Assembly (NCBI GenBank): GCA_963798915.1
Contig: CAWCVB010000002.1
Span: 480,001-544,000, forward strand
DNA length: 64,000 nucleotides
From: an uncultured Gemmatimonadales bacterium
GTDB lineage: Bacteria > Gemmatimonadota > Gemmatimonadetes > Gemmatimonadales > GWC2-71-9
Direction: 5' to 3'
Part shown: positions 5,016 to 53,148 of the stretch, one piece after another
Layout: each line of letters opens with the position of its first letter
Position numbering within the stretch: position 1 is the stretch's first letter
Made by a program: the position numbers and the translations under genes
The notes under the pieces: generated by a model
The model's input: only the letters and a program-made list of their open reading frames with translations
Told to the model about the DNA's origin: nothing
The model's database searches: none

Positions 5016-5100
5016 CAGATCCCTCGCGTTGCTCGGGATGACAGACTCTCTCGACGACCGACGACCGACGACCGACGACCGACGACCGACGACCGACGAC
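5016..5100. repeat. REP-like hairpin (CAGATCCCTCGCGTTGCTCGGGATGACA) followed by (CGACGAC)x7
   Basis: Read directly; heptamer array at 5052-5100. Confidence 0.8.
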
Positions 5101-5128
5101 TACCTGCCCGCCTTGCCCGCCTTGCCGT

Positions 5129-16022: not shown

Positions 16023-16249
16023 ATGGGCGAGATGGGCAGGATGGGCGGGATGGGCAGGTGCTCGTGGGCCGTCATTCCCGCGAACGCGGGAATCCATGAG
16101 GGCTTACCCGTGGTGAATCAGCATGCCCCTGGTCCTCATGGACCCCCGCTTGCGCGGGGGTGACGATCTTGCGACGTTCGGCCCGCCCATCCCGCCCATC
16201 CCGCCCATCCCGCCCATCCCGCCCATCCCGCCCATCCCGCCCATCCCGC
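16020..16249. repeat. Composite element: 9-mer array, 96-bp inverted REP doublet (16070-16165), complementary 9-mer array (CCCGCCCAT)n
   Basis: CGTCATTCCCGCGAACGCGGGAATCCA ... TGGACCCCCGCTTGCGCGGGGGTGACG; a homologous copy lies at 37972-38067. Confidence 0.88.
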
Positions 16250-16939
16250 CTACCTTCCGTCCCACACCAGCGTCGCATTCCCAATCGGCAGCGGGACCGT
16301 GGCGCGGGCGGGAATCCGTCTCGCGTCATCCGTGATCCAGAGTTCCGACGAACGCCCCGCCGCCGCAACCCGGAGATGCAGGCAGCGCACCGATGCGCCG
16401 GAGCCGACCTTGACCGTCTCCCTGCCGAGCGCTGAGACGGTGATGGGATTGAACCCGCTGCGGAAGTAGCCATTGAGCGCGCGGGACTGTCCCGGCGCCA
16501 GCGACAGGGTGCGGATGTAGTAGAGCAGCGCCAGTTCATCCATGGGCTGGGCCGGCGCCACGAACTCCTGGCTGCTGCCTGCCAGCCGATAGCGCAATGA
16601 GTCGGGCAGGATCTGCCATTGCTCGTCGGTCACCCGACCCGCAAGATCCATGTGGCGGTGGAACTGCAGCGAGGCAAAGTCAGCCGACTCGACCCACGAG
16701 GTCAGGTCCCAACTCGACTTGAGGCCGGGCGGGCCGCCATTGGCGCTCAGCGTAAAGACGACCGCCCGCTTGCCCCGGACGGCCGCGTTCCGGGCGACGT
16801 GAATATCGGCAACGCCGGCAGGGAAGTAGCCGACCTTGGCGTCGTAGTGCAGCGTCTCGCCGACCGCGAAGGGCCAGTCGGCGCGCGCATGCGTCAACGA
16901 TCCGGCGAGCATGACTGCAATGACTGGAAGAACCCGCAC
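16250..16939 (-). CDS. DUF3108-like exported protein (start GTG 16939 or ATG 16912)
   Basis: Signal-peptide-like N-terminus; WPFAVGETLHY; DELALLYYIRT; ELWITDDARRIP. Confidence 0.75.
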   Translation of the reverse strand: MRVLPVIAVMLAGSLTHARADWPFAVGETLHYDAKVGYFPAGVADIHVARNAAVRGKRAVVFTLSANGGPPGLKSSWDLTSWVESADFASLQFHRHMDLAGRVTDEQWQILPDSLRYRLAGSSQEFVAPAQPMDELALLYYIRTLSLAPGQSRALNGYFRSGFNPITVSALGRETVKVGSGASVRCLHLRVAAAGRSSELWITDDARRIPARATVPLPIGNATLVWDGR

Positions 16940-18209: not shown

Positions 18210-18407
18210 GGGTCGAGAGGTCGCGAGTCGCGGGTCGTCGGTCGTCGGTCGTCGGTCGTCGTCATTGCGAGGAGGGGCCATCGGGCCCCCTACGGGGCCC
18301 GCAATGGCCCCTCGTCGCAATATGAACTACTATGCCGACGACCGACGACCGACGACCGACGACTGATGACCGACGACTGACAACCGACGACTGACGACCG
18401 ACGACCA
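18210..18407. repeat. Inverted heptamer arrays (GTCGTCG)n/(CGACGAC)n enclosing a nested hairpin (18262-18325)
   Basis: TCATTGCGAGGAGGGGCCAT-CGGGCCCC...GGGGCCCG-CAATGGCCCCTCGTCGCAATATGA. Confidence 0.85.
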
Positions 18408-19131: not shown

Positions 19132-20527
19132 TGCGCACCGGGCCCTGAGCGATGGGCTACGCGTACGCATGGTTTCTTCGGCCGCACGCCTGGCCGGTGT
19201 CGAACCCGGCATGACGCTGAGCGCCGCCCGGGCCGCAGTCGAGACGCTCGACGTCCGCCCTTGGGACGACCGTGCCATCACTCGCGCCGTCACCATGGTC
19301 ACGGCCCAGCTGGTGGGCCTGAGCCCGCAGGTGACGGCCGCCACCGGTGCGCCCGGCGTCTGGTGGATCGGCGCCGGCGGGTTCGAGAAGCTGGGTGGCG
19401 AACGCGCCCTGCTCAAGCGGTTGCTCGCGCTGGCGCAGAAATACCATCCGCGCTCGCGGGTGGCTTCGGCCGATACCTGCATCGCGGCCCATGTGGCCAC
19501 GATGCTCCGCTGGCCCAATGGTCGCTCGGCGCACCTGGTGCCGCCGGGCGGATCGGCACGCCTGCTGCGCCGGGCGCCACTCACGCTGATCCCCATGGAC
19601 GACGAACTCCGTGCCTCACTCCCGGCACTGGGAATCGTTACCGCGGGAGCCCTGGCGGCGCTCCCTGTCAGCGAGATCGAACGTCGCTGGGGTGACGACG
19701 GTCTTCGCGCCTGGCGGCTTGCGCGCGGCGAGGACGAGCGTCGGCCGGTGCTCGCCGCCATCGCGGCGGCCGCGGCCGTCACCGTGGAACTGCCCGATCC
19801 GGTCACGACGCTCGAGCCGGTACTCTTTCTGCTCACGCCCGCACTGGAGCGGCTGGTGCGCGACTCCGCCCTGAAGGGCGAGGCGATTGCCGCCGTGGTC
19901 CTGACGCTGACGCTCGACCGGGCACCGCCGCATGACCTGCTGGTGGCGCTGGCCCGGCCGGTGGCGCGGGCCGCACCACTCTTCGATCAGTGCCGGGCAG
20001 CGCTGGAAACGTGCAGCCTCGCCGCCGCGGTGCGCGCGCTCGCCATCACCGTGCGCGAGGCAGTGCCGCTGCCCGATGAACAGGGCGACCTGCTGCGTCC
20101 CACGTGGAAGGATCCCACGGCCATGGAAGGCGTCTTCGCACGGCTGCGCGCCGGGCTCGGGGCCGGCGCGGTGGTGCGACCCCTGTTGATGGACCGGGGG
20201 CATCGCGTCGAGGATCGCGCCATGTGGGCTGACCGGCCTGCCACCGTGGAAGTCCCGGCACCAGGAGCTGGCGCCGCTTCCACCCGGCTGCTGACGCCGC
20301 CCGTACCGGTGGCGGTGCGGCGCCGGCACGGGCGTCCCGCTGCTATCCGCTGGGAAGGACGTCGCTGGGTCGTGACCCATGCCATCGGCCCCGAGCATCT
20401 GGCCGGTGCGTGGTGGAGCCAGCCCTATGAGCGCGAATACTGGTACTGCGACACTCCCCGTGGCTCGCTGCTCGTGTATCACGCCCGCGGGACAGGGCGG
20501 TGGTGGGTGGAGGGGTGGGGGGACTGA
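19025..20527 (+). CDS. imuB: ImuB Y-family polymerase-like protein
   Basis: AARLAGVEPGMTL, LGI.T.G.LA.L, GPEHLAGAWW...REYW...WWVEGWGD C-terminus. Confidence 0.85.
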   Translation: MRSSWRVACVRIPRFPIGAVWSADVTHLPGTDAWDDAHRALSDGLRVRMVSSAARLAGVEPGMTLSAARAAVETLDVRPWDDRAITRAVTMVTAQLVGLSPQVTAATGAPGVWWIGAGGFEKLGGERALLKRLLALAQKYHPRSRVASADTCIAAHVATMLRWPNGRSAHLVPPGGSARLLRRAPLTLIPMDDELRASLPALGIVTAGALAALPVSEIERRWGDDGLRAWRLARGEDERRPVLAAIAAAAAVTVELPDPVTTLEPVLFLLTPALERLVRDSALKGEAIAAVVLTLTLDRAPPHDLLVALARPVARAAPLFDQCRAALETCSLAAAVRALAITVREAVPLPDEQGDLLRPTWKDPTAMEGVFARLRAGLGAGAVVRPLLMDRGHRVEDRAMWADRPATVEVPAPGAGAASTRLLTPPVPVAVRRRHGRPAAIRWEGRRWVVTHAIGPEHLAGAWWSQPYEREYWYCDTPRGSLLVYHARGTGRWWVEGWGD

Positions 20528-20533
20528 TGGAGA

Positions 20534-20675
20534 GTCGTCGGTCGTCGGTCGTCGGTCATCGGCCAATGAGGTGTGCCACTCGGACCGAAGCTCAGCCAAG
20601 CTCCAGCCTCTTCGGCCGCTCCGCGACCTCAGAGCGACAGTGCAGTTGACGACCGATGACCGACGACCGACGACT
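20534..20675. repeat. Inverted heptamer arrays between imuB and dnaE2
   Basis: (GTCGTCG)n ... (GACCGAC)n ending directly before the dnaE2 ATG. Confidence 0.85.
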
Positions 20676-23600
20676 ATGTACACAGAACTCCACACCCACT
20701 CCTGCTTCTCGCTGCTCGATGGCGCGTCCACGCCCGGGCGATTGGTGGAGACTGCCAGGGCGCTGGGATACCGGGCGCTGGCGCTCACCGACCACAATGA
20801 GATGGGCGGGGCGGTGCAGTTTGCCGAGGCGGCGCGCGAGGCGGGTCTTGGCGGCATCCTTGGTACCGAACTGACCGTGCTGTGGAAGGATGAGCTCACC
20901 CATCTCACCCTGCTCGCCGAGTCGCAGGAGGGCTACGCCAACCTTTGCCAGCTGATCACGAAGAGCCGGATGGAGATGCCGAGGGGCGAGCCGGCGGTCA
21001 CGCTCGAGCATCTGGCACAGCATGCGCCGGGAATCTTTGCGCTCACCGGCTGCCTCCGGGGCCGGGTGCCGGCGCTGGTCGCCCGGGGCGAAGAAGCGGC
21101 GGCGCGGGCCGCGGCCGGGCAGCTGATGGAGATGTTCGGCCGGCGGCTCGCCATCGAATGCTGGGACCACGGCCTGGAAGAGGAGCGCGTCGTGTTTCCC
21201 GCGCTCCGCCGCATCGCGCGGTCCCTTGATGTCCCGTGGGTGGTCACCAACGACGTGCACTATGCCCATCCCGACGAGTGGCGCACCCACGATGTGCTCA
21301 CGGCGCTGCGTCACCGGCAGACACTCGAGGAGATGGGGAGCAGGCTGCGGCCCAGCGGCGAGTGGTACCTCAAGCATCCGGCCCAGCAGGCCCGGCGCTG
21401 GCAGCATGACATGGATGGCTTGCGTGCGAGCGTCGAGATTGCCGAGCGCTGCGCCTTCCGTCTGGAGCAGCTCACGCCGGCGATGCCCGACTTTCCGCTG
21501 CCGCCCGGTGTCACTGCCGATGAATATCTCGCGCGCCTGGTGGCGCAGGGCGCACGCGAGCGCTGGGGCCATGCCATTACGGATGCGCACCGTCGCCAGC
21601 TGGTGCATGAACTCGCCATGATCAAGCGGCTCGACTTTGCCGGCTATTTCCTCATCGTCTGGGACATCGTGCGCTTTGCACGGCGAGAGGGAATCCTCTG
21701 CCAGGGCCGGGGCTCCGCCGCCAATTCGGCGGTCTGCTACTGCCTCGGCATTACCGCCATTGATCCCGTCGCCATGGAGCTGCTGTTCGAGCGCTTCCTG
21801 AGCGATGACCGCCGGGAAGCGCCCGACATTGACCTCGACTTTGCCCATCAGGAACGCGAGCGCGTCATCCAGTACGTATACCAGCGCTATGGCCGGGACC
21901 ACGCCGCCATGGTGTGCGAGCAGATCACCTGGCGCGGCCGCAGCGCCATACGGGACGCGGCACGCGTGCTGGGGTATTCGGCGGAAGAAGGGGAGGCGAT
22001 GGCGGAGATGGGGCTGGATGGGCAAGATGGGCGGGATGGGCAGGAGACGCATAGCGCACAGCGCACAGCGCTCAGCGTCGACCATCGCGGCCTCCCTCCA
22101 CGGCCTGCCCCGCCATCGCTCCATTCATGTGGGCGGGTTTGTGCTCACTCGCGAGCCGCTGGCCACCGTGGTCCCGATCGAGCCCGCCTCCATGCCGGAG
22201 CGCACCGTGATCCAGTGGGAAAAGGATGACCTCGATCCGGTCGGCCTGGTCAAGATCGACCTGCTGGGCCTCGGCATGCTCACCGCGCTGCAGGAGTGCT
22301 TTCACACCATCCGGCGCACCCGCGGCGTCTCGCTCGACCTCGCCACCATTCCGCATGGCGACATGGCGGTCTATGACGACCTGTGCCGAGCCGACACGGT
22401 GGGCGTCTTCCAGGTGGAGAGCCGGGCGCAGATGAACACCCTGCCGCGACTCAAGCCGCGCTGCTTCTACGATCTCGTGGTGGAAGTGGCGCTGATTCGC
22501 CCCGGGCCCATTCAGGGCGACATGGTGCATCCCTACCTGCGGCGCCGAGCGGGGACCGAGGCGGTGACCTATCCCCATCCCGCGCTCGAGCCGATCCTCA
22601 AGCGTACGCTGGGGGTGCCGCTCTTTCAGGAGCAGGGCATGCAGGTGGCCATCACCGCCGCCGGCTTCACGCCCGGCGAGGCCGACACGCTGCGCCGTGC
22701 CATGGGACACAAGCGCTCGCGCGAGCGGATGGCCGCCATCTGCGAAAAGCTGATCGCGGGGATGAAGCGCAACGGCATTCCAGAAGAGACGGCGCAGAAG
22801 ATCTTCAGCCAGATCAATGCCTTTGCCGATTACGGCTTTCCCGAGAGCCATGCCGCCAGCTTTGCCATCCTGGTCTATGCCTCGGCCTACCTCAGGCACT
22901 ACTACGCGCCGGAATATCTCGCCGCCATGCTCAATGCCCAGCCCATGGGGTTCTACTCGACAGGCACGCTCACGGAAGATGCCCGGCGGCATGGCGTCGA
23001 AGTGCGCGGTGTGGATCTGACGTGCTCGGTGTGGGACTGCACCATGGAATCAGGAGATCGGGGGCCGGCGGTGCGGCTCGGGCTCCGCACCGTGCGCGGC
23101 CTGGGTGCGCGTGCGCGGGAGGTGCTCGAGGCGGGCGCGGCGAACCATGCCTATGCCACGGTGCACGATGTGGTGCAGGCCGGATTTGACCGTCGCACGC
23201 TCCGCGCCCTGGCGGAGGCGGGCGCCTTCGACGGCATGTTTCCCGATACCCCTGCCCGCCGGCGCCGGCGCACGGCGCTTTGGGCGGTGCTCGCCGCCGA
23301 GCGTGGCGAGGCGGGTCCGCTGGCGCCGCCTGCGGCATCGGCCGCAACGGTGCCATTGCCGGCAATGACCGGCGTGGAACTCACGGAAGCCGACTATCGG
23401 ATGACTGGACTCTCGCTCGCGGGTCATCCCATGAGCCACCTGCGCGACTGGCTCCGGCGGAATGGGATTCCCTCGGCGGCGGAGGTACTCGAGGTCGCGG
23501 GTCGCGAGTCGCGAGTCGCGAGTCTCGTGTCTCGTGTCTCGCAGCCCGCGACCCGAGACCCGAGACCCGTGTCCATTGTCGTCGCCGGCCTCGTCATCTG

Positions 23601-23847
23601 CCGCCAGCGGCCCCACACCGCCCATGGGTTCGTGTTCGTCACCCTGGAGGACGAGACCGGCATGCTCAACGTGGTGATCCCGCCCACGGTGTTCGAGCGG
23701 CAACGGCTGTTGATTGCCAGGACGCCCCTGCTCATGGTGCGGGGGGAGCTGCAGGTCGAAGGACTGGTTGTCAACGTGAAGGCAGCGGAATGCGAGGCGA
23801 TTGATGCCAAAGCGGGCCGGCACGCGAAAAGCCATGACTTCCACTGA
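20676..23847 (+). pseudogene. dnaE2: Error-prone DNA polymerase DnaE2 (ImuC), split by a +1 frameshift in a repeat tract at about 22007-22077
   Basis: PHP motif ELHTHSCFSLLDG, GRGSAANS, PDIDLDF in one frame; GLPRH, KIDLLGLGML, FQVESRAQ, YGFPESHA, FVTLEDETG, SHDFH in the +1 frame. Confidence 0.92.
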
Positions 23848-26367: not shown

Positions 26368-27188
26368 GGTCACTTGATGCGCACTGCGCAGAAATAGGCC
26401 AGTGTCGTCGGCACAACAGCGCCCCGGTATACCAGCCGCGAAAGCCGCGAGTCGTGGCCTCGATCACATCGTACGACTCGCCGTCCTGTCCCAAGACGCC
26501 TGTGATCGGTGCCGTCTCGGGAGCAGACGTGCCCAGGGAGCTGAGTCGACCTCGAATGACGATACCGCGCGTGAAGACACCGTCGTTAGCGGCCATTCTT
26601 CTTGACTCTGCAGGCGTGGCGCGCCGTACCTCCAGCCGATATCGTGTAAGCCGATCCGCCATGCCTGGCATCAGCTGTGCCTCCGTCAGCATGAACTGAC
26701 CCGTGGCGAGCGCAACCGGTACAGGAGTGCTGGATGTGGGTGGGATGTATAGTACGCCTGACTAGGCACCCCCGCCAAAGGCGCGCTGCGCGATGTTGGC
26801 TGTATCCCACTCGGCGTGCCACGATATTACTGGTTCCGAGTCCACCGGAGTGCATGCCCGCGGGACCTGAATGCCGCCGGCCGACTCTCGGGCGCTGCTC
26901 AGCGTCAGGTAGACCGTACAGGCCACTGTCAAAAAGAGACGATAGCTCGGCATCGAGTACCCATGTGAACGGTCTACCGCCAGGCGCTTCAGCTGCGGGG
27001 CGGCGGCTGCAGCGTGATTGAGTTTACCCAAAGAGGCCGTGGCCGCCGACAGCTGAAAGCGATTCCATCGTGGCCAATGCCCCAGGCGGGCGCACCGCAA
27101 GTACCGGAGATACGACTGCAGTCGACCCCGCGCCGTCGACAATCGAGTGAGCAGCTGAGCAGGTACACACCCGATGCTCCCTTGCGCT

Positions 27189-27899
27189 TTAGCGGGGCGG
27201 AGTCCAGATACGCGGGTTAGGCGGCAGTTCGTACCTTGCAGTACCGAACCTGCGCTCGAGGCTCTCTATGTGCTCAACATCAGTTAATCTGCTGATGGCG
27301 AGGCGAGCTGTCTCCAACCTGCCGACGCAAAACTGCATGCGATTGAGCGACATGACCGCCACGGTCTGTTCGCGTAGATAATCTATGAGTCCGGAGATGT
27401 GGAACACGCCCTGTGGCATCGGTGTCTTGAACTCCGCGTCTCCAGAAAAAACGACGACTGATCTGACCGCGTCGGGCGGTAGGAAGTCGAGACGGGCGTG
27501 TACCGCCTGAGCATGCCGGTTGTTCTGAATGAGCGGGTTCTGGAACCTGAACTTGTACCCAAACAGCAGTTGCGTCCATTTCGTGTCCCTCGCATCGGCA
27601 AAGATCCAACCGCGATAGTGCTTGGTCTCGATGACGAACACACCGAATAGCGACACGAGGACGTGGTCGATCTGGGTTGTGCCTTTTCCCCACTGAAGGG
27701 TGAGGTGGTTCATCAGGTGGTAGCCGGGCAGACTGAAATGTGCCTTCAACACGCTGGCAACTACCGCCTCGCCACGATTCTGGTACGTGCTGTTACGGCG
27801 TGCACGAAAGCGCCAGATGCCAAAGCCAGCAATAGCCGCGCCGAGGACAAAGAGTAGGGTTCGGTGGTCTTGAAGCCAGTCTAAGAGCAGTGTCGACAG
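27189..27899 (-). CDS. NERD (nuclease-related domain) protein, cassette gene; possible CTG start at 27899
   Basis: GEAVV...TQIDHVLVSLFGVFVIETKHYRGWI...FQNPLIQN; frame is open upstream through a TM helix; 3' end runs into the attC box at 27216-27222. Confidence 0.85.
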   Translation of the reverse strand: MSTLLLDWLQDHRTLLFVLGAAIAGFGIWRFRARRNSTYQNRGEAVVASVLKAHFSLPGYHLMNHLTLQWGKGTTQIDHVLVSLFGVFVIETKHYRGWIFADARDTKWTQLLFGYKFRFQNPLIQNNRHAQAVHARLDFLPPDAVRSVVVFSGDAEFKTPMPQGVFHISGLIDYLREQTVAVMSLNRMQFCVGRLETARLAISRLTDVEHIESLERRFGTARYELPPNPRIWTPPR

Positions 27900-27970
27900 G
27901 CGAGCACCTATCTCTTCGAGTAGTGATGTGACCGCGAGCCGCTATGGGAGGGCCTCGCGACCCTTCGGCA

Positions 27971-28069
27971 GTATAACGAAACGCAAATCGGCTGCGGGGC
28001 GGCGGCCGCAGCGGGATCGACTTTACCAGCGGAGGCCGCCGTCCCGGCTGCTGTATTTGCCTGTTAGAC
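27971..28069 (-). other. attC site
   Basis: GTATAAC...GCAAATCGGCTGCGGG ... GCTGTATTTGCCT-GTTAGAC imperfect palindrome; near-identical to 31278-31376. Confidence 0.85.
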
Positions 28070-28119
28070 AGCGTGTCAGTGCGCCATGGCCACCTAGCTC
28101 GCCACGAGCAAGGGAGCCA

Positions 28120-28899
28120 TCATGCACCGTACCGCTCCGCACTGAAACGCCTCCAATGTGTCCCTGTCCAGCGGATGCCAGTTGTATTCGACGTTGAGAC
28201 GAGCCACGCACCCGTGAGTGGCGATGGTAGCGTCGGAGCCGCTGGTGGCAACGCAGCTAGGTCGCCGTCCAAATACGATTGGACCGACCACGGCGCTCCA
28301 GCATAGTCAACGATCACGAAAGCCTGGCAATCAGCTGCGCCCGACCGCGCTAGCTTCGCAATGACGTCAGCCCGTTGCGGGGCGCTGAGAAATGCAGTGA
28401 TCCACTCTGGGATGGCTACTCCTTCGGTATCAACAGGGCCGCCTATGCCCTCCAAGGTCATGTGAACCTTGCCCTCGCCATCTACCCGGAAGCAGCTGAT
28501 GAACGTGATGCCATCACGATCGAGCACGGAGAAGAGCTCCGGGTTGGACCGATTCAGACGCCAGTCCACGTGGACCGCTGACAGCACGCCTTCATGTTCG
28601 CAGCCCTGAAGAATCGCCTCGAGACTTGGAGCAAGCCCCTTCATCTTGGCGCCCGGCTTCAGAATGACAGTCCAATCGCCCCGCAACGCTAGGGTCAGAG
28701 GGCCCCGCGCGGGTCCGATGTTCCAGGTCTCGGTCCGGACACCATCAACCGCGCCGACACATTCTATCGCAATGGCCGGGGAATCAACCGGGCCGATGCG
28801 GAGATCGTACATCGACGGCTGGGAGTTATCGTCGTGGACCACCACAGACTCTCGCAACTCGTTTTGGACGATGCTCTGCGCCCATGATTCGACGCTCAT
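28120..28899 (-). CDS. Hypothetical cassette protein, possible PD-(D/E)xK-like fold
   Basis: 259-aa ORF bounded by attC sites; DD...YDL...AIEC motif. Confidence 0.7.
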   Translation of the reverse strand: MSVESWAQSIVQNELRESVVVHDDNSQPSMYDLRIGPVDSPAIAIECVGAVDGVRTETWNIGPARGPLTLALRGDWTVILKPGAKMKGLAPSLEAILQGCEHEGVLSAVHVDWRLNRSNPELFSVLDRDGITFISCFRVDGEGKVHMTLEGIGGPVDTEGVAIPEWITAFLSAPQRADVIAKLARSGAADCQAFVIVDYAGAPWSVQSYLDGDLAALPPAAPTLPSPLTGAWLVSTSNTTGIRWTGTHWRRFSAERYGA

Positions 28900-29049
28900 T
28901 CGGAATTTCACTCCGATGCCCGCGACCCGCTGCCTAACGGATTGCAAATCAGCTGCAAACGACCTGAGACAACTTATGGTCCTTTGTGGCCACTGGGAGC
29001 GTCTCTTGCCGCGGCGCTTAGGCCTCTACCGCGTTTGTCGGCTGCATTT

Positions 29050-29469
29050 GCGCCTCTGAAAGTGCGGCTGTCAATGGGTGTACGTGCCCCTCGGACGGCC
29101 GAGCCGCCCTTGCGCTGCACCCACCGAATATGCCCACAGCTCCCTCAGATCCAAGCGCGGCACGAAGCCGGCTTCACGCGCCTCTACGGACGCCATGGTC
29201 CAGGAGCATCATGCGAAGGAGGTGGCCCATTCGGGTTACCGGGGGCACTGCCGACTACGCGCCTCTGAAAGTGCGGCTGTCAATGGGTGTACGTGCCCCT
29301 CGGACGGCCGAGCCGCCCTTGCGCTGCACCCACCGACTATGCCCACAGCTCCCTCAGATCCAAGCGCGGCACGAAGCCGGCTTCACGCGCCTCTACGGAC
29401 GCCATGGTCCAGGAGCATCATGCGAAGGAGGTGGCCCATTCGGGTTACCGGGGGCACTGCCGACTACGC
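29050..29469. repeat. 209-bp tandem direct repeat (two copies, one mismatch: A29128/C29337)
   Basis: Base-by-base comparison by eye; GC microhomology at the junction. Confidence 0.95.
29262..29463 (-). ncRNA. Putative seek/bridge RNA (second copy at 29053-29254)
   Basis: Contains TAACCCG (equals target flank plus CG core) and AGAGGCG (equals element end plus CG core), each followed by a stem-loop. Confidence 0.65.
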
Positions 29470-30522
29470 AGCGGATCCCAGCGTATGCGCCGGGCGCACC
29501 TCCAGCTTGTCGTGCTGACGGAGCCACTGCTCGTAGCCCCATCCTTCCTGCCAACACCAGTACAGGTAGCAGCTCAGCTTCCGGGCCGCCGCCACCGTCG
29601 CCTTGGCCTTGCCCTTGGCTCGGAGGAGCCGTTGATACTGCTCGCCCACCGGGCCGGGCGCCAACTTCAGGCTCTGGACGATCTCGATCAGAATCCACTT
29701 GAGCCACGGACTGCCCACGCGACCCACCCCACCGTGCGTCGTCTTGCCACCGGAGCTCTGCGTGCTCGGCACCAGCCCCGCATAGGCCGCCAGCTCGTGG
29801 CTGCTCCGGAACCGCCGGATATCGCCCAGCTCCGCCAGCAGCAGCGCCGCGCCGAAGGGGCCGATGCCCGGCCAGGTCTGGAGCAACTGGGCCACGGGAT
29901 CGCCCTGCACCAGCTGCAGCACGCGCCGATCGAGACGCTTGATGCGAAGATCGAGCTGATCGACCAGCTCAAGCAGCAGGTCCACCTGGAGCCGCCCCAG
30001 CTCCGAAAGTGGCACCGTCGCCAGCCACGTCCGTCCCGCCTTGCCGTACAGGTCCGTCACGTCGGTCCGACGGTTCTCGCTCGTCAGGTGCCCGTGAATC
30101 CGATTCTTCAAGCTGGTCCGCAGGCGAACCAGGTAGGCGCGCCCCCGCAACAACTTGCGGTGCGCCCGCACCTCGGGACTCGGCACCCACACCACCGGGA
30201 GCAGGTTCGCACGTAGCAGGTCCGCCAGCTTGCGGGCATCGATCGGATCGGTCTTGGCCCGCGCCTGCCAGATCACCTTCACCTGAGACGGATGCGCGGC
30301 CACCGCGGCCATCCCCGTCGCGCTGAGCTGGTCATGCAGCCAGGCCCAGTACAGCGTCGCCTCCATCGCCACCGTCACCGGCCCGCCGAGTCCGCGGAGC
30401 CAGGCGATCACCTCCGCGGCGTCCGCCGGCAACCGGCGGTGTTCCGCCACCACGGCGCCGCCCGCATCCAGCGCACAGGCCGTGATGTAACGCTTGTGCA
30501 GATCCAACCCGACCCAGATCAT
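29464..30522 (-). CDS. IS110-family DEDD recombinase/transposase
   Basis: VGLDLHK, AMEAT, KTDPIDA, PGIG, AYAGLVPSTQSSGG, ARKL. Confidence 0.95.
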   Translation of the reverse strand: MIWVGLDLHKRYITACALDAGGAVVAEHRRLPADAAEVIAWLRGLGGPVTVAMEATLYWAWLHDQLSATGMAAVAAHPSQVKVIWQARAKTDPIDARKLADLLRANLLPVVWVPSPEVRAHRKLLRGRAYLVRLRTSLKNRIHGHLTSENRRTDVTDLYGKAGRTWLATVPLSELGRLQVDLLLELVDQLDLRIKRLDRRVLQLVQGDPVAQLLQTWPGIGPFGAALLLAELGDIRRFRSSHELAAYAGLVPSTQSSGGKTTHGGVGRVGSPWLKWILIEIVQSLKLAPGPVGEQYQRLLRAKGKAKATVAAARKLSCYLYWCWQEGWGYEQWLRQHDKLEVRPAHTLGSAA

Positions 30523-30637
30523 CGCTGTCTCCTTGAGGGGCACTCAAGGAAGGTGCTACGCGAATCACCGGCCCACGAGGGGGCGGAGCGGTGGCCGCGC
30601 AGCGCCGCACTCTCATAAGGTCGGGTTAGACGGCATT

Positions 30638-31261
30638 CTAGTCTTGCTCGAGTTGCCTCGACACTTTAGCGGTCCAAATGCTGTCTTCGTGCGCTGCCAA
30701 TGCCGTGTCTGGTTGATCGGCACTACGGAGCCGCTCTACTGCGGCAGCAGCGATCGCTGCTGCTTCGGACTCCTTGCAAGCGTCTCGCACGCCATACGCA
30801 TTTGCTCGAGGGGACCGTGCAATCCCATTGACAATGTCGATGGCGTCAGAGAAAGCGTGTGCCCGGCCGCGCAATGTGTCGCCTGTCCAGGCACCGCGCA
30901 CTTCCATTCCCTCGCTGAGCATGGCGGGGCGTAAGAGCAGCAAAGAGTCCGGTGTCGTGGCAAGCCAAAGCCACGCACGGTCATATTCTGGGGCCGGCGA
31001 TGACGCTTCTGCCTTCGGCTCGTCAGGAACGAACTGGATGACCCGCCAGCCGTGCCTGCCAGCAAAAGTGGAGAGCCAGGAGTCGATGGCGCTCGTCATA
31101 TTCAGGCGGCGGGAGGATCGCCAGATGTCGCCCGGCGGCGAAGGTGTCCAAGTTCCGACGCCGAGCGCGAGGCATCGCATGGCTTTCGATGTCCGAGCGG
31201 CCGACGGTGGTATTGCTGCCACGATGACGACACAGGCGCTGAACAAGATCTTACCGTTCAT
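30638..31261 (-). CDS. Hypothetical exported protein (cassette gene)
   Basis: Signal peptide; cassette ends GTTAGACGACATTC and GAATGCCGTCTAAC are complementary at 13/14 positions. Confidence 0.8.
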   Translation of the reverse strand: MNGKILFSACVVIVAAIPPSAARTSKAMRCLALGVGTWTPSPPGDIWRSSRRLNMTSAIDSWLSTFAGRHGWRVIQFVPDEPKAEASSPAPEYDRAWLWLATTPDSLLLLRPAMLSEGMEVRGAWTGDTLRGRAHAFSDAIDIVNGIARSPRANAYGVRDACKESEAAAIAAAAVERLRSADQPDTALAAHEDSIWTAKVSRQLEQD

Positions 31262-31277
31262 TGATCTCTCGAATGTC

Positions 31278-31376
31278 GTCTAACGAAAAGCAAATCAGCT
31301 GCGGGGCGGCGGCTGCAGCGTCATCGATGTCTCCAGCGGAGGCCGCCGGCCCCGCTGCTGCATTTGCCTGTTAGGC
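31278..31376 (-). other. attC site (intact)
   Basis: GTCTAAC...GCAAATCAGCTGCGGGGC-GGCGGC ... GCCGCCGGCCCCGCTGCTGCATTTGC-CT-GTTAGGC. Confidence 0.9.
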
Positions 31377-31385
31377 GGCATCAAA

Positions 31386-31886
31386 TCAGTAGCCCACCCA
31401 CTCTCCGACGTCCCGGGTGAGAACGCCGAGTGTGTCCAGGAGTACGGCTTCCTCGGGCGTGACTCGAAGCACGCCTTCCTGCTCGTGCGAGATGATGGCT
31501 AGCATGAGTTCCCCGTCACGCCATACAATCGGATCCTCCAGCCATCCACGCTGCATGTCCAGCTCATAGGTGAACAAGTGGTCGGGGCCGAAGGCGCGAA
31601 GTCTAGCAACGGCCTCCGCAGTCAATGTCCACACATGCACGTCGTCGCCACGATCGGAGGTAGTAGGGTTGGCCACGACTCGACGACGCTGAACACCACG
31701 GGACCACGGTGCCAGCGCAGCTTCGAACGCATCGCACGCGAGCGCTGGTGCATTCTCGATGGCGACCCTATCAACGGAAAACTCGTTTGCGCCGCGCGCG
31801 AAGCACCAGTCGAGCAACTGCCATGCTTGCTCGGCGTCGAAATCGGCTTTGAATAGATGTCGAGTGATCAGTTGCTGCTCGTGCAT
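31386..31886 (-). CDS. Hypothetical cassette protein
   Basis: 166 aa starting MHEQQLITRHLF; bounded by attC boxes. Confidence 0.75.
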   Translation of the reverse strand: MHEQQLITRHLFKADFDAEQAWQLLDWCFARGANEFSVDRVAIENAPALACDAFEAALAPWSRGVQRRRVVANPTTSDRGDDVHVWTLTAEAVARLRAFGPDHLFTYELDMQRGWLEDPIVWRDGELMLAIISHEQEGVLRVTPEEAVLLDTLGVLTRDVGEWVGY

Positions 31887-31909
31887 CGTATGCCGCCTTG
31901 TATCTCTGA

Positions 31910-33026
<1,117 letters not shown>

Positions 33027-33041
33027 CTTTCGAGACAGTTG

Positions 33042-33133
33042 CTAACGCCTTAGCTTTCAGCTGCAAGCACACTACCACCAATGCGGCGAAGCCGCATCCG
33101 AAAAGTGCTTGTCAGCTGCAACGTGTGTTAGGC
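33042..33133 (-). other. attC site whose core box is cut by the IS110 element
   Basis: CTAAC...TTCAGCTGCAAGCAC ... GTGCTTGTCAGCTGCAA...GTTAGGC. Confidence 0.85.
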
Positions 33134-33173
33134 TGACGCTTGCGCATATAAGATTCTAAGCGGCAAACACCGC

Positions 33174-33841: not shown

Positions 33842-33950
33842 TCCGGGAAGACTGCGGGCCAGCCGGTCGCACGCACCGCGGAACACGCGATGCGCCCCCG
33901 AGTGGGTCATGTCTCGCAGTCCTTCGCTGGCTTGGCATCGCCAAGCTATC

Positions 33951-34075
33951 CGCGATGCGCCTTGCGCTATGCGCTATGCGCTATTCGCTATCCGCTATGC
34001 ACTCAGCGCTCAGCGCTCAGCGCACAGCGCACAGCGCACAGCCTCAGCGCACAGCCTTCAGCCCACAGCCTTCAA
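33951..34075. repeat. Inverted heptamer arrays (GCTATGC)n/(GCGCACA,GCGCTCA)n
   Basis: Read directly; overlaps the 3' end of the OsmC gene. Confidence 0.85.
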
Positions 34076-34570
34076 CTCCACCCCGATCTCCGGCCCCACC
34101 CGCAGCGTCTGCAACACCACGCAATAGCGCTCCGTCAACTTGAGCAGCGTGGCCAGCTGCTCCTCGCTGGCACTGGTCTCGAGCTCGAAGCGCAGCCGGA
34201 TCGTGCCAAAGCCCACCCGCGCTTCCTTGCTGACGCCCAGCGTACCCCGGAAATCCAGATCACCCTCGGCGCGGATGCGGCCCGCGGAGACCGGAATGTC
34301 GAGCGCCGTGGCTACGGCACGCAGCGTCACGCCAGCACAGGCCACCAGCGCCTGGAGCAGCAGGTCGCCAGAGCAGGCCTGCAGCCCCGTTCCGCCCGTG
34401 GCCGGATGGAGGCCCGCCTCCACCAGCGCCTGCCCAGTCTCCACTCGGCACGATATGCCGGGATCATCCACCCGAGCCTCCGCCCTCAGCGTGACCACGG
34501 CCCGGTCCGGCTCGGCGCGGTAGAGCTCCTTGAGAGGGGCCTGCAATGCCCGCAGGTCGTCTGGGCGCAC
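34058..34570 (-). CDS. OsmC/Ohr family protein
   Basis: GLHPATGG...ACSGDLLLQALVACAG, GDLDFRGTLG, TERYCVV. Confidence 0.9.
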   Translation of the reverse strand: MRPDDLRALQAPLKELYRAEPDRAVVTLRAEARVDDPGISCRVETGQALVEAGLHPATGGTGLQACSGDLLLQALVACAGVTLRAVATALDIPVSAGRIRAEGDLDFRGTLGVSKEARVGFGTIRLRFELETSASEEQLATLLKLTERYCVVLQTLRVGPEIGVELKAVG

Positions 34571-37929: not shown

Positions 37930-38155
37930 GACACGGACAGGACGGACACGGCGGGCAGGTTCTCGTCGAACCGTCATTCCCGCGCAAGCGGGAATCCATG
38001 AGGGCTCATGCGATGTGAATCACCATGCCCGAGGCCCTCCTGGACCCCCGCGTTCGCGGGGGTGTCGATTGGGCGACCTTCGCTTCCCGTCTAGCCGTCT
38101 AGCCGTCTAGCCGTCTAGCCGTCTAGCCGTCTAGCCGTCTAGCCTTGCCGTCTAG
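37930..38155. repeat. Composite element: 9-mer array, 96-bp REP doublet (37972-38067), (CCGTCTAG)x7
   Basis: Homologous to 16070-16165. Confidence 0.88.
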
Positions 38156-39504
38156 CCCTCCAGCCGTCTGATGCCCAGTCGCCGCATGATCTTCAGCAGG
38201 CTGGCATGATCCGCCAGGCCCAGCGCCTCGGCGGTGCGGGTAATGTGCCAGCCATGCTGCTCCAGGGCAGCCATGATGATGCGCCGCTCGGCTTCGACTT
38301 TCTGCTCCTGGTAGGAGTTGCCAGGCGTCGCCGGCTGCGTGCCGCCACGAACGTCATCGGGCACGTGCTCCGCCCGCAGTATCTCGCCGTCCGCCGCAAT
38401 GACCATCCGCTCCAGCACGTTCCGCAGCTCACGCACATTGTTCCGCTTCCAGTCATATGCCATCAGCAGGTCCAGTGCTTCACCCGAGAGCCGTTTCTTC
38501 AGCATTCCGAAGCGCTGGCAGATGTCGGTCAGGAAACGGTCGGCAATGGGACCGATATCCGACGTGCGTTCGCGCAGGGGCGGCACCCTGATCACGTGCG
38601 CATTGAGCCGATAGAGCAGGTCTTCCCGGAAGCGGCCCTCGCGCACCTCCACCTCCAGGTCGCGGTTGGTGGCGGCCACCACACGCGCCTGCACTGCCAC
38701 TGCCTTGGTGCTGCCGAGCGGCATGACGCTGTGGTCCTCCAGCACCCGGAGCAGCTTGGCCTGGGCCGGCTGCGCCAGCTCACCGGCTTCGTCGAGAAAC
38801 AGGGTGCCACGTCCGGCCGACTCGAAGGCGCCGCGCCTGGCAGTGGTCGCCCCGGTAAACGCGCCGCGTTCGTGGCCGAACAGCTCGCTCTCGATCAGAT
38901 GTTCCGGCAGTGCGGCACAATTGATGGCAATGAACGGCGCCGCCGGATTGGCGCCCAGCCGATGAAGGTCGCGCGCCACCAGTTCCTTGCCCGTTCCGCT
39001 CTCGCCCAGGATCAGCACGGTGCTCGGGATGGGCGCAAGACGGCGAACGGCGTCCCGAAGACGCTCGAGCGCCGCGCTGCTGCCGGCAAGCGACGATTCT
39101 CCCAGCCGCTCCTGCAACTGCATCACTTCGCGCCGAAGGCGACGCCGCTCCAGGGCGGACTCCACCTCGTGAAGCACCCGTTCCATCGGCTCGCCCTTGT
39201 CGATGAAGCCGTAGGCGCCAAGGCGCACCGCCTGGATGCAGCGATCGAAATTGCCGGTGCCGGTGTAGACAATGACGGGCACCTCGATGCCGCGGTGCTG
39301 CATCGCATCAAGCACCTGGAAGCCGTCCATGCCCGGCATCTCGAGGTCCAGGATCACGCAGTCAATGTCGCCCTGAGTGACCCGGGCCAGCCCGGCCTCC
39401 CCGCCGTTCGCGGTCGCGGTGTCATGGCCACCCAGCCGCTTGAGATCGTATGCGTACTGCTCGGCAAGCGGCTGGACATCATCCACAATGAGAATCCGGC
39501 TCAT
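38152..39504 (-). CDS. Sigma54-dependent response regulator (NtrC family)
   Basis: Receiver domain; GESGTGKE; ESELFGHERGAFTGA; FREDLLYRL; C-terminal HTH. Confidence 0.95.
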   Translation of the reverse strand: MSRILIVDDVQPLAEQYAYDLKRLGGHDTATANGGEAGLARVTQGDIDCVILDLEMPGMDGFQVLDAMQHRGIEVPVIVYTGTGNFDRCIQAVRLGAYGFIDKGEPMERVLHEVESALERRRLRREVMQLQERLGESSLAGSSAALERLRDAVRRLAPIPSTVLILGESGTGKELVARDLHRLGANPAAPFIAINCAALPEHLIESELFGHERGAFTGATTARRGAFESAGRGTLFLDEAGELAQPAQAKLLRVLEDHSVMPLGSTKAVAVQARVVAATNRDLEVEVREGRFREDLLYRLNAHVIRVPPLRERTSDIGPIADRFLTDICQRFGMLKKRLSGEALDLLMAYDWKRNNVRELRNVLERMVIAADGEILRAEHVPDDVRGGTQPATPGNSYQEQKVEAERRIIMAALEQHGWHITRTAEALGLADHASLLKIMRRLGIRRLEG

Positions 39505-51749: not shown

Positions 51750-51807
51750 GAAGGGGCCGTGTCGTAGGGGTAAAGCCATGGCTTTACCCCTACGACACGG
51801 CCCCTTC
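51750..51807. repeat. Perfect 58-bp palindrome containing a GTAG-type REP
   Basis: GAAGGGGCCGTGTCGTAGGGGTAAAGCCA|TGGCTTTACCCCTACGACACGGCCCCTTC. Confidence 0.9.
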
Positions 51808-52362: not shown

Positions 52363-53148
52363 GTGTCTCGGCGATTCGAGCCTTTGGCGGATGACAGACA
52401 GTCAATTCGGCTGCCGGGATATGACTACACGCGGGCAGGTGCGTACTTCGTAACCGTCTGCGTGGCGGCGAGGAAGCGTATCCTGGGCTCCATACGATGT
52501 GGTGTCATGAGGGTGAGCGAGGCGGGGCGGGCGGCGGAAGCGGCATGGTATGGGCTGCCGGCGCATTATCCCCACGTGCGTTTGGACGCGTTCGTGGTGA
52601 TGCCCAATCATGTGCACGGGATCGTAATGTTGGACGCGGGAATGGATCGGGACGTGGGAACCGTAGGGGCGGGTCGGTTCGGGGCATCGGGCGACGGTCG
52701 TGGCGAGGGACAGGCAGGGGCGGGTCGGTTCGGGGCATCGGGCGACGGTCGTGGCGCGGGACAGGTAGGGGCGGGTCGGTTCGGGGCATCGGGCGACGGT
52801 CGTGGCGCGGGACAGGTAGGGGCGGGTCGGTTCGGGGCATCGGGCGACGGTCGTGGCGCGGGACAGGTAGGGGCGGGTCTTAGACCCGCCCCTGCGGGTG
52901 CCCGGGCAACCATCCCAACGTCGGGCGGTGCCCCGTCGCCGCCACGACGTCACGCATTACCCGAAATCGTCCGCGCGTTCAAATCATTTTCCGCCCGCGC
53001 CATCAACATCCATCGCGGAACACCCGGTGCCCTGGTGTGGCAACGGAATTACTATGAGCGCATTGTGCGAGACGTACGCCACCTGAAACAGGTGCGGCGC
53101 TACATTCTGGAGAACCCAGCCGCCTGGGGCGACGACCACTTCCGCTGA
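52363..53148 (+). CDS. REP-associated tyrosine transposase (RAYT, HUH/Y1)
   Basis: SIRLPGYDY...YFVTVC, VVMPNHVHGI, FKSFSA, WQRNYYERIVR, YILENP. Confidence 0.9.
   Translation: MSRRFEPLADDRQSIRLPGYDYTRAGAYFVTVCVAARKRILGSIRCGVMRVSEAGRAAEAAWYGLPAHYPHVRLDAFVVMPNHVHGIVMLDAGMDRDVGTVGAGRFGASGDGRGEGQAGAGRFGASGDGRGAGQVGAGRFGASGDGRGAGQVGAGRFGASGDGRGAGQVGAGLRPAPAGARATIPTSGGAPSPPRRHALPEIVRAFKSFSARAINIHRGTPGALVWQRNYYERIVRDVRHLKQVRRYILENPAAWGDDHFR
52663..52895 (+). repeat. In-frame 51-bp tandem repeat x4 followed by a complete REP inside the RAYT gene
   Basis: Units start at 52663, 52714, 52765, 52816; REP GTAGGGGCGGGTCTTAGACCCGCCCCTGC at 52867-52895. Confidence 0.92.

Follow-up and report, generated by a model that had tools for sequence, protein, structure and literature searches.

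A guide-RNA and right-end module present twice in tandem in the assembled sequence of an IS1111-type element

Insertion sequences of the IS1111 group are described by Siddiquee et al. (PMC11187229) as encoding transposases of about 330-350 aa with a GL-P----S(T)G motif in the C-terminal domain, and as possessing subterminal inverted repeats (IRs) which usually are 11-13 bp long and near-perfect. Beyond these IRs lie terminal extensions, of 7 (or 6) bp on the left and 3 bp on the right. The guide RNA of the group, the seekRNA, is encoded downstream of the transposase gene (tnp) and is portrayed there as a short RNA derived from a longer transcript, with the circle junction as the only promoter. 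In IS621 the bridge RNA carries guides, LTG and LDG, which correspond in sequence to the left target and the left donor, respectively, as read on the top strand and each along with the core (Durrant et al., PMC11208160). Also for IS621, recognition by the donor arm alone is reported to be enough for excision, as well as for a donor-only or ‘half-match’ recombination (Xie et al., 10.64898/2026.08.31.748434). For ISPpu9, circles consisting of tnp alone, of tnp plus RNA, and of RNA alone are described as having been detected (PMC12288879).

Tandem non-coding repeat units found beside IS110 transposases (n = 468) have been described by Hu et al. (bioRxiv 10.64898/2026.08.14.744561). The repeats counted there, as called with TRF, are adjacent and same-strand, with at least 95% identity, a unit of at least 50 bp, and two or more copies. 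Unit boundaries are reported to keep ‘left donor’ (LD) matches nearly exclusively, with this pattern enriched over controls at IS110 loci, and what is suggested is that LD-started reactions are resolved in place, duplicating the adjoining segment. The name IS1111 occurs 0 times in the text of that paper. Here the term left donor, or LD, refers to the right end of the element, which is a usage that is relevant to all that follows.

The element considered here is an IS1111-type, i.e., IS110-family insertion sequence found on the minus strand of a 64-kb window, where ‘window’ refers to the whole stretch of DNA that was analysed. Its transposase gene (29464-30522, minus strand) encodes a 352-aa protein (P0001) of the IS110/IS1111 DEDD type, with the Pfam domains PF01548 (DEDD; 2.7e-22) and PF02371 (Transposase_20; 3.1e-21) both above cut-offs, and with the GL-P----SG motif present as GLVPSTQSSG. 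The left end is non-coding, 99 nt in length (30523-30621, minus strand), as aligned by eye with 15 relatives. It is separated by the left junction core, CG (30622-30623, minus strand), from the left half of an integron attC site (GTCTAAC-C, 30631-30624). The subterminal IR is TGAGAGTGCGG on the left (30615-30605) and TGAAAGTGCGG on the right (the reverse complement of 29067-29057 as well as of 29276-29266), matching at 10 of 11 positions, and it is kept in relatives as TGAAAGCGCGG and CCGCGCTTTCA. The extensions beyond these IRs are ACCTTA (6 nt, left) and GAGG (4 nt, right), as counted without the junction CGs, with the boundary being shiftable within the shared CG. From stop codon to end there are 205 nt of non-coding DNA per unit, versus the 99 nt of the left end, a layout shared by 19 complete relatives, i.e., those with one left-end and one right-end motif. 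The domains, the 11-bp subterminal IR, the long non-coding region downstream of tnp, and the GL-P----SG motif together bear out the IS1111-type assignment made in a preliminary description of this DNA.

That description also claimed that the whole 209-bp region from transposase stop to element end is duplicated head-to-tail, including the subterminal IR and an outward TTGACA, and all of its coordinates have been verified. TRF reports for 29050-29469 a period of 209, 2.0 copies, 99% matches, no indels, and a score of 833, and a repeat search finds head-to-tail copies of a 209-bp unit, of which one is outer (29050-29258) and the other inner (29259-29467). The two differ in a single column, A29128 versus C29337, for an identity of 99.5%; this single-base difference is as originally noted, as too is the joining of the copies at a GC microhomology. 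With GC found at 29050-51, at 29259-60, and again at 29468-69, the identity of the units extends 2 bp further, and the duplication breakpoint therefore is ambiguous over 3 positions. The unit begins ahead of the transposase stop codon (TAG, 29466-29464, minus strand), by 1-3 nt, and extends to 1-3 nt past the terminal AGAGG of the element. What has been duplicated, as also had been stated, is exactly the module which encodes the guide (seek/bridge) RNA together with the right end. No other tandem repeat in the 64-kb window has a period of more than 51 bp. A 99.5% identical repeat that is the only long-period tandem repeat in 64 kb is not due to chance, and the tandem duplication, which is known from one assembly, probably is both real and recent.

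The contents of the two copies, both on the minus strand, can be followed from tnp outward. The inner copy holds the conserved core of the RNA module (29372-29455), within it the target guide TAACCCG (29441-29447) and the right-end guide AGAGGCG (29388-29394), then the derived base at 29337, TTGACA (29278-29283, minus strand, directed outward), the IR (29266-29276), the terminal GAGG (29262-65), and CG (29260-61). In the outer copy the corresponding positions are 29163-29246 for the conserved core, 29232-38 and 29179-85 for the guides, 29128 for what is there the ancestral base, 29069-29074 for TTGACA, 29057-29067 for the IR, 29053-56 for the terminal GAGG, and 29051-52 for the core CG. Both IRs are 10/11 matches to the left-end copy (30605-30615), and the right ends of the two copies are identical over the last 78 nt plus the core CG. 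A covariance model of the conserved part of the RNA module matches the inner copy at 29356-29476 (134.3 bits) and the outer copy at 29147-29266 (119.6 bits).

Each copy contains two 7-mers that recur at the ends of the element, that is, CGGGTTA (at 29232 and 29441), which equals 30622-28, and CGCCTCT (at 29179 and 29388), which equals 29051-57. In a 28-row alignment, consisting of the two window copies and 26 relatives, columns 26-112 are nearly invariant, corresponding in the window to about 84 nt (29455-29372 and 29246-29163), while the 3' half of the module is variable. Matches of 6 nt to the target top strand are found at TAAC-N-CG in about 70% of 19 loci, and the N of TAAC-N-CG equals the flank base in 18 of 21 elements, across A, C, and G. 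Matches to the right end are found at AGAGGCG in at least 90% of 21 loci. As the two 7-mers fall within what is the most conserved part of the module across the 26 relatives, and as CGGGTTA covaries with the flank (18/21), these are not chance matches; their conservation and flank covariation identify as real guide segments what had been presented as 7-nt matches to target and donor end. By comparison with IS621, TAAC-N-CG and AGAGGCG are, as judged from these alignments, the left-target and left-donor guides, each including the core. For right-target and right-donor guides, on the opposite strand, no consistent match of 6 nt or more was found at any alignment column.

The RNA module has four helices by which 95.1% of alignment cells are paired, versus 28-51% with slid partners, with a covariation score of 0.328 versus at most 0.108. 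Hairpin P1 straddles the stop codon (29456-29472, minus strand), with its 5' arm (29472-29468) lying in the last codons of tnp and its 3' arm at 29460-29456; compensatory changes are seen at 2 of its 5 pairs, and 90% of cells are paired. The duplication breakpoint cuts P1 between its 5' arm and its loop. In the outer copy the P1 5' arm is replaced by the inner right end, with 2 of 5 pairs broken and a model score that is 14.7 bits lower. Rfam gave no match in 27000-32000 at E values of up to 1, and a single-sequence fold of one unit had a z-score of -0.08, which is uninformative in a G+C-rich RNA. As a promoter and terminator scan of 28900-30700 gave 0 and 0 sites, respectively, there is no sign of a promoter belonging to the outer unit itself nor of a terminator separating the units. 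If transcription is as in other IS1111 elements, then tnp and both modules would share a transcript.

No conserved position distinguishes the two modules. The one base by which they differ falls at alignment column 174, in the 3' half which is variable across the family, and outside of the about 84-nt core that holds both guide matches. As the outer-copy base is common to the closest relatives (L001, L002, L046, L014, and L028), it is the inner copy which carries the derived base. With that base the inner copy reads GUCG, complementary to CGAC, i.e., to CG plus the first two left-end bases, and the preliminary description had speculated that the change from CGAC to CGAA might be at a guide position. 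The motif in relatives mostly is UUCG, less often UCCG, UGCG, or another variant, whereas CGAC begins every left end, and complementarity to the left end at this position therefore is not maintained. The GUCG match as a right-donor guide can be set aside as coincidence, given relatives that mostly have UUCG against a constant CGAC. Nor is there support for the divergence of one guide, which had been suggested as something that two cassettes would allow, having begun; the conserved guide cores are identical, and the derived base lies on the inner copy.

Certain further pairings were tried and rejected. Candidate helices between columns 26-32 and 181-188 (62% paired) and between columns 174-189 and 247-257 (51% paired) do no better than shuffled or slid controls. 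A pairing of AUUCGG with the guide loop CCGAAU fails as well, with variants in L028, L030, L006, and L009 being uncompensated, as judged by eye.

The element lies within what resembles an integron cassette array. An attC-like repeat family in the window (families D8 and D11), about 100 nt in length and of the form RYYYAAC...GTTRRRY, is found between short minus-strand ORFs, as in such arrays. Intact attC sites read, on the minus strand, G(Y)CTAAC-AGG-CAAAT(G/A)CAGC, and the element is flanked by the GTCTAAC-C and CAAATGCAGCC of an attC which aligns with three intact copies nearby. The right part of this interrupted attC (CAAATGCAGCC ... GCAGCTGATTTGCAATCC GTTAGGC) is at 28932-29050 on the minus strand, with GTTAGGC at 28938-28932. 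The empty site presumably would have read GTCTAAC-CCG-CAAATGCAGCC, with 3-nt spacing as in the intact sites. As read from these flanks, insertion is into the 5' (R''/L'') end of the attC, in the same orientation as gene cassettes.

As to the surroundings of the element, the cassette array (26940-33145) has at least 5 attC-like sites, at about 26972-27048, at 27971-28072, the interrupted one, at 31278-31376, and at 33042-33135. One of its ORFs (27189-27752) has a NERD nuclease-related domain. A scan of 19 ORFs in the window turned up no integron integrase, and the array may be an attC cluster without integrase. A second IS110-family transposase (32073-33026, plus strand, 317 aa) possesses both Pfam domains, is only 25% identical to the first and unrelated to it, and has about 180 nt of non-coding DNA upstream (region 31890-33135). 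As this second transposase lies between a cassette ORF and the attC-like site at about 33042-33135, two different RNA-guided elements occupy neighbouring positions of one array. Elsewhere in the window are many tandem repeats of short period, with 7-, 8-, 9-, and 14-nt units in as many as about 11 copies, at 16182-16250, 18335-18406, and 38087-38169, with more at 5024-5114, 1892-2036, and 33943-34095, related units of which recur at distant sites and on both strands. There are in addition a 51-bp unit with 4.3 copies and 98% identity (52663-52879) and a perfect 58-bp palindrome with 29-nt arms and no spacer (51750-51807).

Close homologues of the transposase, as found by protein search, are 62-91% identical and mostly are unnamed metagenome proteins. 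A scan of genome contigs supplied 78 loci, mostly from metagenome-assembled genomes (MAGs) of Gemmatimonadota, with a best identity of 85-86% and the window's own genome not among them. Among plasmid records the best 5000 all have less than 60% identity, with those listed being 38-41%. Left flanks of relatives are YTAAC-N-CG in nearly all cases, and in 31 of 32 left-end motif matches the two bases ahead of the left end are CG. Right junctions following AGAGG are AG (9), CG (9), TG (5), GG (5), CA (3), and CT (1) (n=32). Junction cores hence are asymmetric, nearly fixed as CG on the left and variable in their first base on the right, and from these sequences the core seems to travel with the right-hand partner. 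Such an asymmetry would fit with an insertion that is fixed mainly by top-strand transfer, which has been proposed for another IS110 element (bioRxiv 10.1101/2025.10.25.684509). By a strict, exact-match criterion an attC is recognised in at least 11 of 29 distinct right flanks, and by eye in more. Element and RNA are ordinary IS1111 members, attC-targeting, in a Gemmatimonadota lineage without earlier description.

A search of related elements for tandem non-coding ends, which the preliminary description had recommended, found two modules solely in the window. The covariance model, R1, has 38 matches, i.e., 2 in the window and, for 36 loci, a single match apiece; the 209-bp unit gives one blastn HSP in each of 35 loci; and the right-end motif occurs once after each transposase of the relatives. 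No orphan RNA module is present in the window or the 78 loci, every R1 match being beside a whole or truncated transposase. Since the contigs at many of these loci come from MAGs, are short, and break off within the element, and since short-read assemblers collapse such repeats, the missing second module in relatives nevertheless is weak evidence. Element copies can be found close to one another, with two 7 kb apart on one contig (L011 and L033) and, in L012, with a right end followed at 0.7 kb by another left end. Truncated relatives, consisting of 5' parts (L034, L036, and L057) or of 3' parts (L038, L039, and L053), break near element positions 610-620 and 753-788, which could be recurrent internal boundaries or instead just a variable region of the gene.

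How, then, might a second module have come about? The inner junction reads AGAGG-CG-CGTAGTC, where AGAGG plus CG is the AGAGGCG of the RNA. As the breakpoint is only 1-3 nt past AGAGG, it lies on the terminus of the element, core included. On its other side CGTAGTC, the base of P1, is unlike the left end, ACCTTATG, with about 1 of 8 bases in agreement by eye. At 209 bp x 2.0 copies and 99% identity the repeat falls within the tandem repeats as counted by Hu et al., and its inner junction has the left-donor-only boundary described by those authors, the comparison with the left end having been made by eye. The duplication probably is an instance of that class of rearrangement, described in 2026, as matched to it by description.

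The reading that I favor, if with some reserve, is of a real duplication that was anchored on the right end, i.e., on the left donor, with this end joined to a site which is not a left end, as an LD-only half-match. It would be the element's own RNA-guided recombinase that effected this half-match event, perhaps via an unequal exchange between sister copies, or with a slightly divergent second copy inserting at the first or beside it and homologous collapse ensuing, or instead via reintegration of a partial circle. Both the recombinase's role and the use of either end are here things that I infer. Against a clean exchange are the two CGs at the junction (AGAGG-CG-CG-TAG), since exchange at aligned cores would leave just one. 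The two-CG junction fits only if the partner core was TG and if the exchange, or mismatch resolution, kept the donor's C, while the core at natural right junctions usually is that of the target. The partner breakpoint was scored with weight matrices from 25 right and 19 left natural flanks; its right half ranks within the top 1.8% of window positions and nothing sets its left half apart, for a likeness to right-target halves which is weakly suggestive.

The single-base difference also bears upon origins. A 209-bp direct repeat should be lost by homologous recombination much faster than point mutations are gained. If loss of the repeat does outpace point mutation, the difference is more easily explained by two slightly different copies having taken part. 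Unequal exchange, nested insertion plus collapse, and insertion beside an orphan module are not separable here.

Of other explanations, the one that fares best is duplication by host replication, that is, by template switching or slippage at the 2-bp GC microhomology, with the transposase uninvolved and with the coincidence with the element's end reflecting hairpin-prone DNA. This is possible, though I would consider it to be rather improbable. GC is indeed found at all three boundaries (29050-51, 29259-60, and 29468-69), 2 bp of identity in DNA that is 65% G+C, and the breakpoints are at hairpin-forming DNA, one being at the base of P1 and the other in the attC beside the subterminal IR. Exchange at aligned CG cores, too, should have given a different junction, and in its likeness to natural right-target halves the partner site is only in the top 1.8%. 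A random event nevertheless would be unlikely to place a breakpoint within 1-3 nt of a terminus, and slippage must contend as well with this being the only long-period duplication in 64 kb. Relative to controls, furthermore, IS110 loci are reported to be enriched in the right-end-anchored pattern (Hu et al., 10.64898/2026.08.14.744561). Mutation following duplication, moreover, would be a slow way to arrive at a base difference within an unstable repeat.

A history in two steps instead may be envisaged, with an orphan RNA and right-end module first in the attC, e.g., following loss of the left end and transposase as a partial circle, and then with a second, slightly different copy inserted between that orphan and the target's intact left half, this insertion being a left-target-only half match. 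The base difference would then not have to wait upon mutation, with the resident outer module ancestral and the incoming, inner one derived, and between the left target half, GTCTAACC-CG, and the guide the match is complete. Elements do pile up in the same arrays (L011 with L033; L012), tnp-alone and RNA-alone circles are documented for ISPpu9 (PMC12288879), and partial circles that reuse the left-end terminus have been described (Hu et al., 10.64898/2026.08.14.744561). This history is unlikely, however, as two rare events are needed and as no orphan module is found in the window or in the 78 loci, and its end product is indistinguishable from that of a right-end-anchored duplication.

Just as unlikely is that the genome has one module only, the second being an artefact of assembly resulting from the mis-threading of a repeat, from strain variation (which would supply the base difference), or from reads of circular or multimeric forms. 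That 0 of 36 related elements have two modules would be in keeping with such an artefact, and the closest loci are MAGs, so that the source apparently is an uncultured lineage. Trust in the assembly is affected also by the DNA polymerase III alpha gene, which is split over overlapping plus-strand frames, with 20379-22229 encoding the PHP domain and first part of the NTPase domain and 21805-23847 encoding the rest; the frameshift, near 22000-22100, may be an assembly indel error. Indel errors, however, do not create 209-bp duplications with exact bounds, and the junction AGAGGCGCGTAGTC must occur in reads for any assembler to place it. The base difference makes the copies separable, which speaks against simple stutter, and a long contiguous window with two IS elements suggests that repeats have been resolved. 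Lastly, an integron integrase as the cause can be rejected, since the junction lacks a GTT crossover site and an integrase was not found in any of the 19 scanned ORFs.

To return to the right-end-anchored duplication and what may follow from it, one tnp followed by two RNA modules would give a doubled dosage of the guide core but no new specificity. There would be as well two equivalent right ends, recognisable by one guide, AGAGGCG, and either of these could be joined to the left end if donor-arm recognition suffices as is reported for IS621. Excision from the inner end would yield a normal element of about 1.36 kb and would leave behind, in the attC, an orphan RNA and right-end module. Excision from the outer end would yield a 1.57-kb element, and the duplication would be undone if the repeats recombined homologously with each other. 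The missing P1 arm may put the outer RNA at a disadvantage. To speak of two alternative right ends and two guide cassettes, as was done originally, therefore is a fair description of the anatomy. The accompanying idea, that excision from the inner end could leave an RNA-only mini-element, is conceivable, but the outer unit lacks a left-end-like boundary, lacks the P1 5' arm, and scores 14.7 bits lower.

More doubtful is the combined proposition that the element's own recombinase made the duplication by half-match, that both right ends are active, and that the arrangement is an intermediate toward a non-autonomous module consisting of guide RNA and right end. If true, then a module left in an attC could supply guide RNA in trans and could act as a landing site or recombination partner for copies within arrays. 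It would be an IS1111 counterpart of the ‘selfish RNA’ ssr9 of ISPpu9, and a route by which guide genes might diverge and re-target.

The current picture of IS110/IS1111 elements is unchanged by this locus. If the duplication is real, then what it offers is a clean, minimal natural example, i.e., one unit, one base difference, and exact boundaries, of growth of an RNA-guided IS110/IS1111 element, growth which copies the guide-RNA gene itself plus a second usable end. As such it is a substrate for questions about half-match reactions in the IS1111 branch, about the choice of ends by the recombinase, and about the survival of a lone RNA-plus-end module. The guide-to-target rule of this Gemmatimonadota lineage should be useful, in addition, toward annotating cassette arrays in soil MAGs.

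Of known systems, the elements of the IS1111-attC group (ISKpn4, ISPst6, and ISPa25; PMC11187229) share with the window element, as described, DEDD plus C-terminal PF02371 domains, subterminal IRs, and a long downstream non-coding region whose seekRNA matches the target over short segments, along with insertion at one end of attC in fixed orientation. The window element differs in being of another lineage, with relatives almost all from Gemmatimonadota MAGs. Published IS1111-attC elements, further, are described with one non-coding module, and the window element has two. With IS621 (IS110 group; PMC11208160) there is in common that guides are the top strand of the left target or left donor plus the core, but the RNA here is at the right rather than the left end and the core is CG rather than CT.

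ISPpu9 with ssr9 (Pseudomonas putida; PMC12288879) likewise is an IS110-family element with alternative right ends, its transposase portion being followed by a separately bounded small-RNA module, and ssr9 is reported to have end boxes of its own, A' and B', and not to be required for transposition. The extra unit in the window, unlike ssr9, duplicates the guide module of the element itself, has only a right end, and is without a left-end-like boundary. Interpretation as an ISPpu9-type modular element was rejected on this basis, the outer unit having no left-end-like sequence at its left boundary.

Most similar as a rearrangement are the tandem repeats of Hu et al. (10.64898/2026.08.14.744561), which as described are same-strand and transposase-adjacent, with a boundary that keeps left-donor but not right-donor sequence, as is seen here. 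The novelty of the window element consequently was at first overstated: the anatomy stands, but it is not a new kind of arrangement, the tandem class being already present in that 2026 paper. The repeated unit is not stated, in the passages of Hu et al. considered here, to be a guide-RNA gene. Here, because the RNA gene of an IS1111-type element is at the right end, what has been copied is a complete RNA module plus subterminal IR.
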